Positions 403-4,316 of a DNA stretch of 61,456 nucleotides are shown here, piece after piece; position 1 is the stretch's first letter; each line of letters begins with the position of its first letter. The translations under genes were made by a program, and so were the position numbers. This stretch comes from a bacterium. Its GTDB lineage: Bacteria; Actinomycetota; Coriobacteriia; Coriobacteriales; CADBOM01. The notes under the pieces were generated by a model. That model saw only the letters and a list, made by a program, of their open reading frames with translations, was not told where the DNA came from and made no database searches. The stretch is taken from positions 1 through 61,456 of the forward strand of contig JAILQZ010000012.1 of NCBI GenBank assembly GCA_024698685.1, given 5' to 3'.

Positions 403-1689
403 CTAGGCGATCGCCTGCAGCACAAGCAATGCCACAGTTAGCGCAATAATGACGACTATCGCGAGCTTGATCAAGAAGTTCGCGACCTTGCCATTGGCGT
501 AGTTGCCCATCAGACGCTTGTCCTTGAGCAGGATCAGGATGAAGATCAGCAGCACCGGCAGCAGCACGCCGTTGATGAACTGCGCGAGAAGCATGATGCC
601 CATCAGGTTCACGTTGGGGATCAGGACGATCAGGCACGAGAAGATCAGGATGGCGGTGAAGATGCTCTTGAACTGCGGCGCCTCGCTCCACTTGGTGCCG
701 ATGCCGCGCTCCCAACCGAACGCCTCGCAGACGACGTCGGATGTGGTAAGCGGGAGGATGCACGCGGCGAGCAGGGAAGCTGCGAGCAGGCCTGCCCCGA
801 AGAGGACGGTCGAGTATTTGCCGGCGATCGGCCCGAGAGCCATCGCAGCATCAGCCGCGTCGACGATTTCGGTGCCTTGCGGATGGAGCACAGCGCCGGT
901 GGTGAGGATGATGAACCACGCGACGACGCAACTCACGACAGCGCCGGTCACAACGTCGATCCTCTCGTAGAAGAGCTCCTTGACGCTCACGCCCTTGTCG
1001 ACGACGTTCGACTGCGTGAAGAAGATCATCCACGGCGCGATGGTGGTGCCGATGAGCGCGATGACCACCTCGAAGTAGTCGCTGGAGAGGGTGGCGTGCG
1101 GAACGACGGTGGAGGTGAGCGCCTCGCCCCAGTCGGGCCCCGCCAGGAAGCCCGCGAAGATGTATGTGATGAAGACGCATGAGATGACGAGGAAGACCTT
1201 CTCGACGCGCTGGTAGGAGCCCGCGTTGATCAGCAGCCACACGAAAAGCCCTGCTATCGGCACGGAAATGTACTTGCTGACCCCGAAGAGCTCCATAGCG
1301 GCAGCCACTCCGGCGAGCTCAGAGAACGTCGTCGCGGTGTTGGCGATGAGCAGCGCGAGCATGGCCAGCGCGGCAAGCCTGATGCCGAAGCGCTCGCGGA
1401 TGAGCGCCGAGAGCCCCTTGCCGGTCTTCGCGCCCATGCGCGCGGCGGCCTCTTGGACGATGATCAGGAAGATCATCATCACCGGGATGGTCCAAAGCGC
1501 CATGAAGCCGTAGTCCGCGCCGCAGATGGAGTACGTCGAGATGCCGCCCGCGTCGTTGCCGGCCATCGCGGCGACGACTCCCGGGCCCATGGCCGAGAGT
1601 ATGAGCATGAGCTTGCGGCGCTTCTTGGGCTCGGCGGGCTGGCCGGTGCCCTCCATGTGCGCCATCTGCTTCTTCTCGAGGTTCGCCAT
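403..1689 (-). CDS. NRAMP/SLC11-family divalent cation transporter, NRMT (Mg2+-transporting) type
   Basis: Multi-TM protein; TM1 GPG..AAMAGNDAGG (DAGG instead of DPGN) and TM6 GTTIAPW lacking the Met of Mn/Fe NRAMPs; GGAGG RBS. Confidence 0.88.
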   Translation of the reverse strand: MANLEKKQMAHMEGTGQPAEPKKRRKLMLILSAMGPGVVAAMAGNDAGGISTYSICGADYGFMALWTIPVMMIFLIIVQEAAARMGAKTGKGLSALIRERFGIRLAALAMLALLIANTATTFSELAGVAAAMELFGVSKYISVPIAGLFVWLLINAGSYQRVEKVFLVISCVFITYIFAGFLAGPDWGEALTSTVVPHATLSSDYFEVVIALIGTTIAPWMIFFTQSNVVDKGVSVKELFYERIDVVTGAVVSCVVAWFIILTTGAVLHPQGTEIVDAADAAMALGPIAGKYSTVLFGAGLLAASLLAACILPLTTSDVVCEAFGWERGIGTKWSEAPQFKSIFTAILIFSCLIVLIPNVNLMGIMLLAQFINGVLLPVLLIFILILLKDKRLMGNYANGKVANFLIKLAIVVIIALTVALLVLQAIA

Positions 1690-1707: not shown

Positions 1708-3525
1708 TTACAGGCCCGACTGTCCTATCAGAACGGCCGCAGCGAGCTGAATGGCGATCGCTATGACCATGAGGATCAGCGATACGGGCAAGTCGCTGAG
1801 AATCTTGTCCTTGCGGTGCAGCACCAGCCCGATGGCGGAGAAGAGCGTTCCGAGCACGATGGTGACGAAGACGCAGATCATGAGCGGGAGAGCCAGGTTG
1901 GCGAAGGTTGCGATGCCAAGCGCGTATTCGGCGCTGAAGCGGTCGCCCGCGATGCCGAGGATCGCCGCTGCCAGAAGGCCGATTACGGCGGTCACAACCA
2001 GCGCGATGACGATGTTCCTGCCGAACAGCCGCCCGATCCCAGCGCTCTGGCCCTCGTCGATATCGATCAGCAGGTTGAGCGAGAGCGAGCCGACGACGTC
2101 GGCGATTATCAGCGAGATCGGCATGACGAGGATCTGCTCCGCGATGGAGTCGAACGCTCCCATGAGGAAGGCTCCGCCGGCGACAATCGCCCAGACGATG
2201 ACCCACATCATCCTGCGGAGGAACCAGGGAATCGCAGCGCGAAGGCCCTCGTTGGGCTGGGTCTTGCCCGCGCCCGCGAACATCAGGTCCTCATCGTACT
2301 CCTCCTCCATGACGTCGATCGCGTCGTCGATCGTGACGATGCCGAGCATCTTCCCGTCATCGACGACGGGAATCGCGAGGAGGTCATACTTCTGGATCAT
2401 CTCTGCGACTTCCTCCTGGTCGACCTCGGGGGATACGCTCACAATCTCGTTGGTGCTGATGTCACCGAGGGGCGTGTCCTGGTCGGCCAGCACGAGCTCG
2501 CGCAGAGAAACCGCGCCGCAGAGTCGCGAAAGCGAGTCTACCAGGTAGATGTAGTGCACCGACTCGTACTCCCTGCCGAGGTCGCGCACCTTGGCGATGG
2601 CCTCTTCGACGGTGGTGGCCTCGGAGGCGGTGATGAACTCAGTGGTCATGATTCCGCCGGCGCTCTTCTCCTTGTAGCCGAGAAGCGCGCGGATCCTGCG
2701 CTGGTCCTGCACTCCCATCAGCCACAGCAGGGCCTCCGCCTTCTCGTAGGGGAGGTCGCCGAGGATGTCTGCCGCGTCATCTGGATCCATCTGGGCGAGG
2801 AGCTCTGAAGCTCGATGCTCCGACATGTCCTCGATGAGGTCGCTCTGGAACTCGTCCTCGAGCTCTGCGACCGTGTCGGCTGCGTTCTGGCTGTCGAGGT
2901 GCTCGAAGACGCGCGCACGCTGCTGCGGGTCGAGCTGCTCGAGGATGTCCGCGATGTCGGCGGGGTGCAGCTCATGCAGGCGCTTGTGCGTCACCGAGAG
3001 CTTGACCTGCGAGAGGTCGCGGTCGACCAGGTCCATGTAGTTCCACGCGATGATCTGCTCCTTGAGCGGATGGCGGAAGAGCTTGGAGATGCCCACGACC
3101 GCCTTCTCGATGATCGGATGCAGGCCTCGCAGGATGCCCAGAACGCCGGTCTCGGCGCCTAGCAGTCTCAGGATGTTGCCGGACTGCGAGAGCTTGAGGT
3201 CGTTGACGCGAACGACCTTGAGCCCTTGCGTATCGACGATCTGCTTGTTGAGAAGGTCGCGCGCGAGCAACAGCTCGTCTGGCTGCAGATAGCTGAAGCG
3301 GATGTTGTGGCTCTCCAAGTTGAGCTTGATTCTCTCGCCGTCGAACTCATCGACGTACTTGCGCCAAGACACCATGAAAGGAGTCTTGGCAGGCCCAAGG
3401 AATGCCACTGATGTGATTCTCGGAAAAACCTCGCCGGTCGAGATGGCCAGATCGCTAACCTTGCCGATTTCCTCGCCGGTTGCATCCAGCACCGATATTC
3501 CCAGGAGTTGGGATAGATAAAGCAT
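1708..3525 (-). CDS. MgtE-like protein: PRC-barrel-like N-terminus, MgtE_N, CBS pair, divergent 5-TM C-terminus
   Basis: LHPADIADILEQL, MDPDDAADIL, SAGGIMTTEF, KYDLLAIPVVD..GIVTIDD motifs; GAGGAG RBS before ATG at 3525. Confidence 0.85.
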   Translation of the reverse strand: MLYLSQLLGISVLDATGEEIGKVSDLAISTGEVFPRITSVAFLGPAKTPFMVSWRKYVDEFDGERIKLNLESHNIRFSYLQPDELLLARDLLNKQIVDTQGLKVVRVNDLKLSQSGNILRLLGAETGVLGILRGLHPIIEKAVVGISKLFRHPLKEQIIAWNYMDLVDRDLSQVKLSVTHKRLHELHPADIADILEQLDPQQRARVFEHLDSQNAADTVAELEDEFQSDLIEDMSEHRASELLAQMDPDDAADILGDLPYEKAEALLWLMGVQDQRRIRALLGYKEKSAGGIMTTEFITASEATTVEEAIAKVRDLGREYESVHYIYLVDSLSRLCGAVSLRELVLADQDTPLGDISTNEIVSVSPEVDQEEVAEMIQKYDLLAIPVVDDGKMLGIVTIDDAIDVMEEEYDEDLMFAGAGKTQPNEGLRAAIPWFLRRMMWVIVWAIVAGGAFLMGAFDSIAEQILVMPISLIIADVVGSLSLNLLIDIDEGQSAGIGRLFGRNIVIALVVTAVIGLLAAAILGIAGDRFSAEYALGIATFANLALPLMICVFVTIVLGTLFSAIGLVLHRKDKILSDLPVSLILMVIAIAIQLAAAVLIGQSGL

Positions 3526-3552
3526 GATGAGTCTCCTCTTCAATTGCGTTCA

Positions 3553-3612
3553 CAGATGGCAGGGGAGCGATGAACCCGGCATCGCCGCCTCCGCTGATGC
3601 CCCAGCCACCTC
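3553..3612 (-). promoter_or_regulatory. Structured 5' UTR segment of the mgtE-like gene
   Basis: On the minus strand AGGUGGCUGGGG can pair with CCCCUGCCAUCU, enclosing GCAUC..GAUGC; starts at the leader ORF stop. Confidence 0.5.
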
Positions 3613-3659
3613 TAGAGGAGACCTAAGGGGCTAATGACTGTGACTGAAATCGTCCACAA
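3612..3659 (-). CDS. Putative 15-aa leader peptide MWTISVTVISPLGLL
   Basis: AGAAAGGG SD-like, then TTG TGG ACG ATT TCA GTC ACA GTC ATT AGC CCC TTA GGT CTC CTC TAG; an overlapping GTG frame gives MDDFSHSH (3657-3631). Confidence 0.5.
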   Translation of the reverse strand: MWTISVTVISPLGLL

Positions 3660-3766
3660 CAGCCCTTTCTTCTAGTAGCCCTTCTTGCTCGGCGCGCGCC
3701 CTTTGCGCCGCGCCTTCGAACCTATAGCGCGCCTAGGGCGCCGCAGCGCCCCAGCGCAAACCTCGC

Positions 3767-4030
3767 CTACTGGATGGTGTTGGCGAGCTTCATGATTCCA
3801 GACTTGCGGTTGGCAGCCTGGTTCTTGTGGATGACGCCCTTGGAGGCCGCCTTGTCGAGAAGCCTGCAAGCCTTGAGAGCAGCCTCGAGCGCAGTTTCTG
3901 CGTCCTCGGCAGCTACGGCGTCCTTGACCCTGCGGGTAGCGGTCTTGAGCTCCGACTTGATGGCCCTGTTGCGCATGCGTGCGATCTCGTTCGTGCGGTT
4001 GCGCTTCTTCTGACTCTTGATGTTTGCCAC
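3767..4030 (-). CDS. rpsT: 30S ribosomal protein S20
   Basis: [30 protein letters not shown]; GTG start. Confidence 0.98.
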
Positions 4031-4316
4031 GTCTTCGTTCCTTCCAAATGTGCTATATCGTTACAACACCTTCGTTGTAAAACTGCTATGCAGCAACGCG
4101 ATAGGCGCGCTGAATATCAAATTATGCACCAAGTCCCTTTCCATGATGGCGACGAAGCTGGTGTGAGTGGCAAAAACCCAAGGCAAGCGAACCTTTTTGA
4201 CGCGAAACCAGCCCAAAAAGGGGCATTTTTAGCGATTCTTGCGAGCTGATTGCGACAAACCGCCGAATATTTCAACCGCAAATAACGATTCAAGCGCCTC
4301 TCGTTGAATTCCCTCG

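Follow-up and report, generated by a model that had tools for sequence, protein, structure and literature searches.

The stretch of DNA analyzed here, which we call the window, comprises 61,456 nucleotides of a genome from the order Coriobacteriales (class Coriobacteriia; assembly GCA_024698685.1, contig JAILQZ010000012.1, positions 1 to 61,456), and positions 3530-3670 of its minus strand form the 5′ leader of a two-gene Mg2+-uptake operon. The first gene, referred to below as the main gene, encodes a protein with a PRC barrel, an MgtE_N domain and a pair of CBS domains (PRC-MgtE_N-CBS), and the second encodes an Nramp-family protein of the NRMT type. The MgtE membrane domain was not recognizable in the main-gene product by Pfam search, which gave no match for its last 185 aa. 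The closest solved relative of the Nramp protein is the Mg2+ transporter EleNRMT (PDB 7QIA, E 2.7e-169), with which it has in common the NRMT-type DAGG and TTIAPW sites; in the NRMT paper, the Mg2+-type binding site of these transporters is described by the replacements Asn to Gly, Ala to Thr, and Met to Ala (PMC8806188). An NRMT homolog is found downstream of the PRC-MgtE_N-CBS gene in 78 of 79 related loci. An earlier note on this DNA had proposed a leader peptide and a long RNA stem, acting together as a ribosome-dependent attenuator, in front of a Mg2+-transport operon, and the identity of the two genes bears out the operon.

The features of the leader, all read on the minus strand, are collected in Table 1. 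The leader contains a micro-open reading frame (ORF) that starts with GTG, carries its own Shine-Dalgarno (SD)-like stretch, and ends 105 nt upstream of the main-gene ATG at 3525. It is followed by RNA segments designated regions 2, 3, and 4, and the first base of region 2 is the G of the leader stop codon UAG. A sequence check located the SD-like stretch, the GTG ORF, an overlapping TTG ORF, and the 12-nt stem where the earlier note had placed them, the stem beginning at the stop codon of the TTG ORF and ending 28 nt upstream of the ATG. Outside that stem lies a feature that the note overlooked, the complementarity between a sequence following the leader stop (GGUCUCCUCU, hereafter the anti-SD) and the SD region of the main gene (AGAGGAGACU).

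Table 1. Features of the operon leader and adjoining genes in the window
Feature	Position	Strand	Basis or remark
SD-like stretch of the leader ORF, AGAAAGGG	3670-3663	-	Sequence; 5 nt upstream of the GTG ORF
Region 1, GGGCUG (3′ part of AGAAAGGG and spacer)	3665-3660	-	Pairs with UAGCCC at 3633-3628; helix 1:2 in the minimum free energy (MFE) fold
GTG leader ORF, GTG GAC GAT TTC AGT CAC AGT CAT TAG (MDDFSHSH, stop)	3657-3631	-	Conserved in relatives
TTG ORF, MWTISVTVISPLGLL and stop	3659-3612	-	Not conserved; probably no feature
Region 2, GCCCC-UUA-GGUCUCC	3617-3631	-	Pairs with region 1 or region 3
Anti-SD, GGUCUCCUCU	3623-3614	-	Complementary to the main-gene SD region; duplex -19.6 kcal/mol
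12-nt stem, 5′ arm, AGGUGGCUGGGG	3611-3600	-	11/12 positions pair with CCCCUGCCAUCU, one U-U mismatch
Region 3, GGUGGCUGGGGC	3599-3610	-	Pairs with region 2 or region 4
Inner hairpin enclosed by helix 3:4	3566-3598	-	Predicted fold; locus-specific
Region 4, CCCCUGCCAUCU, 3′ arm of the 12-nt stem (helix 3:4)	3565-3554	-	Sequence and fold
Main-gene SD region, AGAGGAGACU	3539-3530	-	Pairs with the anti-SD in the MFE fold
Main gene, 605 aa, PRC barrel, MgtE_N, two CBS domains, C-terminal membrane part	1708-3525	-	Pfam domains
Nramp-family gene, NRMT (Mg2+ transporter) type, second operon gene	403-1689	-	Pfam and structure homology
rpsT (ribosomal protein S20), upstream neighbor	3767-4030	-	Context only

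The leader evolves too fast for BLAST. A DNA similarity search of 41 related genomes matched the terminal parts of rpsT and the main gene, and the sole match to the leader itself, a 60-nt stretch in genome G011 (73%, E 0.005), led to the conserved ORF. No further copy besides the leader itself was found by similarity search in the window's own genome. It is the GTG frame that is kept in the family: MDDFSHSH in the window corresponds to MDDHSRGHRS in G006 (locus L012), MDDHSHGHRS in G011 and MSDHPDSN in G008 (locus L058), each followed by a stop codon. Among 80 related loci, 77 were evaluated (the match is truncated in L001 and L011, and L010 has 55 nt upstream), and all 77 have a micro-ORF at the same place, with peptides of the form M[NSRD][DEN]H(DH)PHS[NKT] and MNDHPHSSDHIHKP in the window's group and MKVRK[PSQH]KPHS[MNKSLR] in the Eggerthellaceae. 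A covariance model constructed from the leaders and run on 151 genomes of the class matched 35 of them, with one match each; the window, itself in the training set, was matched weakly at 3587-3675 (E 0.002, 23.4 bits). Nine weaker matches were inspected and all lie upstream of a PRC-MgtE_N-CBS gene, eight with shorter ORFs, e.g., MKPHS[PQLT], MKPRPHSR, and MKPKPRPHSS, and the ninth (L136) with an Eggerthellaceae-type MKVRKHNNR.

The PRC-MgtE_N-CBS gene is present in 135 of the 151 class genomes, and 51 of 60 further upstream regions (20 families) also contain a leader ORF, e.g., MTPSSP, MRPPSP, or MKPHSTQPR, the regions without one being six from family f16, two from f17, and L192 from f25. 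Taking all sets together, 169 regions upstream of the orthologous gene were examined across the Coriobacteriia, and 160 of them contain a leader ORF, compared with 0/169 on reverse complements and 1-4/169 on shuffled sequences. The 160 leaders comprise 138 unique leaders, 90 distinct ORF sequences, and 55 distinct peptides. Start codons among the unique leaders are GTG (70), TTG (61), and ATG (7), stop codons are TAG (95), TAA (25), and TGA (18), and the peptides are 6, 8, 9, 10, 11, or 14 aa long with all length changes in frame. Most end in Pro-x-Ser-x-stop: Pro is found at position -4 in 125/138 (CCT 95, CCA 19, CCG 6, CCC 5), with the third base free, and Ser at -2 in 129/138 (AGT 126, AGC 3), frequencies that are partly circular, the settings of the ORF finder having been fitted to this motif. 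All 160 leaders have an SD-like stretch ahead of the start codon, with the finder requiring one within 16 nt. No stop codon occurs at three variable sites (0/270 codons in the 90 distinct ORFs), and the other two frames are open in 5/90 and 58/90. The retention of start and stop while the codons used for them change, the in-frame length changes, the free third base of Pro, and the SD-like stretch together point to a translated frame. The window's ORF lies within the family limits of 6 to 14 codons, an SD-like stretch, and a position 50-360 nt upstream of a PRC-MgtE_N-CBS gene.

The leader peptide after which the earlier note was titled is that of the TTG frame, and this part of the proposal did not hold: the TTG start is absent in G006/L012 and in G011, and the frame, +1 relative to the conserved ORF, is open over the whole ORF in no more than 5 of 90 distinct leaders. 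The rare TTA codon remarked on in the note lies in this nonconserved frame.

Four pairings covary across the family: region 1 with region 2, region 2 with region 3, region 3 with region 4, and the anti-SD with the main SD, and they persist across groups of completely different sequence. The main alignment, A1 (MAFFT, 67 unique leaders), was not fitted to any structure. Helix 2:3 was recovered from it by RNAalifold, with compensatory change at 8/8 pairs, 91.6% of cells paired compared with 25-56% for slid controls, and 0/500 shuffles reaching its score, a figure that, like the other shuffle and permutation figures given here, overstates significance because related sequences are not independent. 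Helix 3:4 exhibits compensatory change at 7/7 pairs in an alignment where the window's own region 4 falls in gap columns. The two helices share A1 columns 135-138, and column 136 covaries with column 81 as well as with column 157, its partners in the two helices, indicating that helices 2:3 and 3:4 are mutually exclusive. For regions 1 and 2, duplexes between the leader SD region and the stop codon plus the next 12 nt average -10.1 kcal/mol for cognate and -8.5 kcal/mol for noncognate combinations (0/5000 permutations). When the 32 nt following the leader stop were paired with the SD region of their own or of other loci (69 unique pairs), cognate duplexes gave -17.7 kcal/mol vs. -14.2 kcal/mol for noncognate ones, and 0/5000 permutations were as low; in L063, L029, and L019 the anti-SD complements span 8-13 nt and include non-SD flanks. 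In the MFE fold of 112/138 leaders, 5 nt or more of the main SD are base-paired to the 40-nt stretch that follows the leader stop, compared with 40-51/138 when that stretch is shuffled. The gap between leader stop and region 2 is 0-5 nt in A1. The anti-SD forms part of the helix 2:3 stem in the window and falls within the small apical loop of helix 2:3 in most relatives. A second alignment of 40 minimal-type leaders, A2 (MAFFT), yielded only three pairs by RNAalifold; its variable arms are misaligned and it displays the ORF block alone.

The conservation and covariation checks suggested by the earlier note thus find both the GTG frame and the stem recurring and covarying in relatives. These comparative data bear on the possibility that the ORFs and the stem are products of chance in an ordinary intergenic region without function. 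GC-rich DNA often contains short ORFs and GC-rich stems, and the fold of the window's own 251-nt region, in whose MFE structure the 12-nt stem is present, has a z of only -2.45, with 4/200 shuffles folding equally well. The conservation, the covariation, and the association with a single operon across at least 20 families already contradict this explanation, and we give it almost no probability.

The window itself has all parts of the family structure: its predicted folds include helices 1:2, 2:3, and 3:4, and its anti-SD is the complement of the main SD region. Its MFE fold (-59.6 kcal/mol) contains helix 1:2 around the ORF, helix 3:4 with its inner hairpin, and a 10-bp anti-SD:SD duplex. When helix 2:3 is forced (-52.7 kcal/mol), the 10-bp duplex is unformed and the main SD is left with a short local hairpin. 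Helix 2:3 is the MFE structure of the nascent transcript up to 3590 and is displaced once region 4 has been made. A scan of 3450-3850 detected neither an intrinsic terminator nor a sigma-70 promoter, and region 4 is followed by GUGAACGCAAUUG, which has no U tract; with no terminator-like site, the predicted output is translational, and a trp-type transcription attenuator was rejected on the same grounds, helix 3:4 being no intrinsic terminator.

The earlier note recognized no M-box in the leader, and the leader is indeed not one. An Rfam scan of 3300-4100 gave no match to any family even at E ≤ 10, including the M-box (ykoK, RF00380), and a search of Rfam 15 with the window and seven loci of different groups at E ≤ 1 matched only the M-box and tRNAs. 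The same scan with the RF00380 covariance model (gathering score 44 bits) detected M-boxes of 55-139 bits in 35 of the 60 further upstream regions, which argues that their absence from the window is not due to blindness of the tool. In the orders of the Coriobacteriia other than the Coriobacteriales, an M-box with its terminator is found directly upstream of the leader ORF (five of five distant loci tested), and of the 35 regions with an M-box, 34 also have the leader ORF, L192 being the one with an M-box and no leader ORF. The 13 Coriobacteriales regions (f13 and f5) among the 60 all lack an M-box. Outside the class, 301 genomes of the phylum were searched and 20 upstream regions of homologs (33-60% identity) were taken, of which none has the leader ORF and eight have the M-box alone. 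There are therefore three states: the M-box alone outside the class, the M-box together with the leader in the sister orders, and the leader alone in the Coriobacteriales, including the window. The distant gene copies at L173-L179 and L198 (f16 and f17; 43-64% identity) have neither leader ORF nor M-box, and in the f17 pair and at L173, L174, and L176 the gene starts within a few tens of bases of the end of the preceding gene. Six loci outside the Coriobacteriia (L205, L213, L214, L216, L217, and L219) share a conserved block of another kind, which closes with a terminator-like hairpin and T run and gave no Rfam match at the gathering score; it may represent a different, undescribed leader for the homologous gene.

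The arrangement is very probably a conserved cis-regulatory switch that hides the main SD, and its layout resembles that of the trp and ermC leaders. In those systems a leader ORF is combined with mutually exclusive helices 1:2, 2:3, and 3:4, and the leader stop adjoins segment 2, which is covered by the terminating ribosome. The Coriobacteriia leader shares the ORF, the mutually exclusive helices, and the position of the stop beside segment 2, but its helix 3:4 has no U tract, unlike the terminator of trp, and does not hold the SD, unlike that of ermC, since the SD pairs instead with an anti-SD situated between segments 2 and 3; nor are there runs of a regulatory amino acid codon. We infer that the leader is translated, that Mg2+ is the signal, and that control runs in the following direction. 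With no ribosome on the leader, helices 1:2 and 3:4 and the anti-SD:SD duplex would form and the main ribosome-binding site would be closed. A ribosome that paused or dropped off at or before the Pro-x-Ser codons would occupy region 1 and leave region 2 free to form helix 2:3, which would sequester the anti-SD and expose the main SD. If the conserved Pro codon stood in the P site, such a ribosome would reach just to the stop codon, and region 2 would remain uncovered. A ribosome that read through to the leader stop would cover region 2, and the closed state would return. Coverage of region 2 and of the anti-SD was judged by the usual size of the ribosome footprint. That translation of the leader drives the switch is probable. 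As a whole, a trp/erm-like, ribosome-dependent attenuator with translational output is the best reading of the data, and one that we favor with moderate confidence. The attenuator proposed in the earlier note is thus sustained in part: there is a conserved in-frame ORF with its own SD, and the stem is one of two exclusive, covarying helices beside the ORF stop, but the output would pass through a separate anti-SD and not through the stem alone.

A different placement of the ribosome, held at the leader stop and masking the anti-SD, was judged less likely. The distance from the first base of the UAG to the start of the anti-SD is 10 nt in the window and larger in most relatives, which puts the anti-SD at or past the limit of what a ribosome in that position would cover. 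A histidine-sensing attenuator was also rejected, since the family does not conserve His (H, S, P, F, V, L, Q, and others occur at position -3) and the operon has no link to histidine.

Several observations weigh against control by leader translation as set out above. In the window, helix 3:4 together with the anti-SD:SD duplex is about 7 kcal/mol more stable than the helix 2:3 state and remains the MFE structure even when the ORF and region 1 are masked; the helix 2:3 state being thermodynamically inferior, the open state would have to be kinetic. In the same calculation, masking 3651-3619, as by a ribosome held at the stop codon, frees the main SD, and the sign of control could be the opposite one. 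The window's own peptide departs from the Pro-x-Ser-x-stop ending, reading S-H-S-H-stop with Ser kept at -2 and the Pro at -4 replaced by Ser, and its own family has lost the motif, the endings being SHSH, GHRS, and PDSN. Only 33 of 55 distinct peptides have at least two Asp, Glu, or Pro residues at positions 2-7, and 22 have one or none; after the initial Met, the window peptide has Asp2 and Asp3 only. The Eggerthellaceae-type peptide is basic, which makes the analogy with intrinsic ribosome destabilization (IRD) partial. In the Eggerthellaceae, the ORF varies hardly at all at its synonymous sites (GTT, CGA, CCT, CAC, AGT), the Ser codon across the family is AGT in 126/129, and a four-pair hairpin over the start codon is 97% paired. 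The frozen synonymous sites, the AGT codon, and the hairpin over the start indicate a strong constraint at the RNA level that could alone account for part of the conservation of the peptide.

These last features are what would be expected if the RNA refolded by itself, or with an ion, a metabolite, or a protein, and the ORF were a by-product of conserved nucleotides, its start codon being contained in a conserved small hairpin; the covariation of all four pairings needs no ribosome either. Such an RNA-only switch would not readily account for the preservation of starts and stops despite their varying identity (three of each), for length variants that are all in frame and variable codons that contain no stop, for the free third base of the Pro codon, or for the SD-like stretch before every start that the finder recorded under its own 16-nt requirement. 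Neither A1 nor A2 displays a conserved multihelix junction or an aptamer-type internal loop, and no described Rfam family was matched. We consider a switch made of RNA alone unlikely, though it is the strongest of the alternatives. Two loci, L136 (MKVRKHNNR) and L191 (MRLVSH), keep the ORF and the helices and have no Pro-x-Ser; they are natural variants.

The proposed signal is the Mg2+ state of the cell, which would be read through the performance of the ribosome on a very short nascent chain, as for MgtL and MgtQ. This is a guess from context, made because the leader serves a single Mg2+-uptake operon, because it accompanied and then replaced the M-box, and because of the MgtL and MgtQ precedents; we hold it tentatively, and it could well be wrong. 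The Mg2+ context is strengthened by the NRMT type of the Nramp protein and by the M-box adjoining the same leader in the sister orders. The M-box is a different kind of RNA, a metal-binding aptamer with a terminator and no ORF, and it resembles the leader in that it controls homologs of the same gene, adjoining the leader in the sister orders and standing alone in other classes.

For MgtL, the leader peptide of enterobacterial mgtA, a preprint describes an N-terminal EPDP and abortive or slow translation near the N-terminus that is read as low Mg2+ (bioRxiv 10.1101/2021.02.02.429294). On that description, MgtL resembles the Coriobacteriia leader, the window's included, in that the 5′ leader of a Mg2+ importer gene contains a very short ORF overlapped or followed by alternative stem-loops. 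It differs in phylum, in having no sequence likeness (EPDP vs. P-x-S-x-stop or MDDFSHSH), and in its output, which is transcription termination instead of the SD sequestration predicted here; in addition, many of the Coriobacteriia peptides are basic and not acidic. MgtQ is an ORF of 8 aa between mgtC and mgtB of Salmonella, and Asp2 and Glu5 are needed to free the mgtB ribosome-binding site, as stated in the abstract and section titles of its report (PMC8092293). By the same abstract and titles, it is like the window's ORF in having eight codons and acidic N-terminal residues (Asp2 and Glu5, required in MgtQ, vs. Asp2 and Asp3 in the window), and in that translation of the ORF controls a Mg2+ transporter gene whose ribosome-binding site is held in an inhibitory stem-loop (PMC8092293). 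MgtQ is, however, intergenic within an operon and not a 5′ leader, its sequence is unrelated, and its abstract does not mention a four-segment layout with a separate anti-SD.

Alternatively, the leader may be translated and respond to an input other than Mg2+, such as translation capacity, the supply of Pro- or His-tRNA, a drug or metabolite acting on the ribosome, or the input may be absent altogether and the SD unmasked constitutively by translational coupling. The sister orders already sense Mg2+ by an M-box just upstream, and a second module could bring in another signal; Pro and Ser are the conserved residues, the peptides of the window's group are His-rich, and only part of the peptides are rich in Asp, Glu, and Pro. 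However, the element is tied to a single operon, with one match per genome, and that operon has no link to His or Pro metabolism. Furthermore, the Coriobacteriales have kept the leader and lost the M-box, and with a non-Mg2+ input the operon there would have no Mg2+ control. We regard this alternative as improbable, slightly more so than a switch made of RNA alone. A further-reaching proposal is that the Pro-x-Ser micropeptide is a dedicated ribosome-based Mg2+ sensor that arose behind the M-box in early Coriobacteriia and fully replaced it in the Coriobacteriales, by means of a motif for stalling or abortion, Pro at -4 and Ser at -2 before the stop, that resembles no described arrest peptide. 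This we consider doubtful, but if it were true, it would document a hand-over from a metal-binding riboswitch to a nascent-peptide sensor.

No leader ORF or upstream ORF was found described for NRMT, mgtE-like, or Coriobacteriia genes in the full-text literature searched, although the alignment files of PMC11109978 could hold a related motif. The main text of a 2024 survey of 50 genomes, taken without its supplements, gives an "mgtE motif" in Thioalkalivibrio only and does not mention the Coriobacteriia, and the words "riboswitch," "operon," and "CBS" are each absent from the available text of the NRMT paper (PMC8806188). Within the limits of this literature, we rate the element as not in print and as belonging in kind to ribosome-dependent leader control. 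If the proposed mechanism is true, leader-peptide control of Mg2+ uptake would be described outside the Proteobacteria for the first time, and the NRMT class of Mg2+ transporters would have its first described regulatory element other than the M-box. The three states found across the phylum constitute a natural series for studying how a ribosome-based sensor comes to supplement or replace a riboswitch, and for what reason. The minimal form of six codons (e.g., MKPHSP or MTPSSP) offers a compact model for very short nascent chains acting on the ribosome, and the leader is present in the cultured human-gut genera Eggerthella, Gordonibacter, Adlercreutzia, Slackia, and Senegalimassilia, where it is directly testable.

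Upstream of the leader, the interval between rpsT and the leader in the window (3690-3766) contains GC-rich hairpins without a T run, and the leader may be cotranscribed with rpsT; in other loci, tRNA genes are found upstream of the leader in place of rpsT. Small shares of public RNA runs cover only conserved parts of rpsT (3784-4032), by way of relatives' contigs; the leader is uncovered, which is no evidence either way. A conserved block, TTGACA-NAG-ATTTTAC, sits between helix 3:4 and the main SD in many long-spacer leaders of the Eggerthellaceae (L015, L025, L032, L040, L047, L053, L079, and others) but not in short-spacer loci, and may act as a second promoter or as a protein site. The first gene of the operon also differs between groups. 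In the Eggerthellaceae its product stops after the CBS pair, at about 410-420 aa, and in the window's group it is extended by about 185 aa of membrane segment belonging to no Pfam family. The PRC-MgtE_N-CBS protein, a copy of the MgtE cytosolic domain encoded next to the NRMT, may be a regulatory partner of the transporter, and as its constant companion it merits study.

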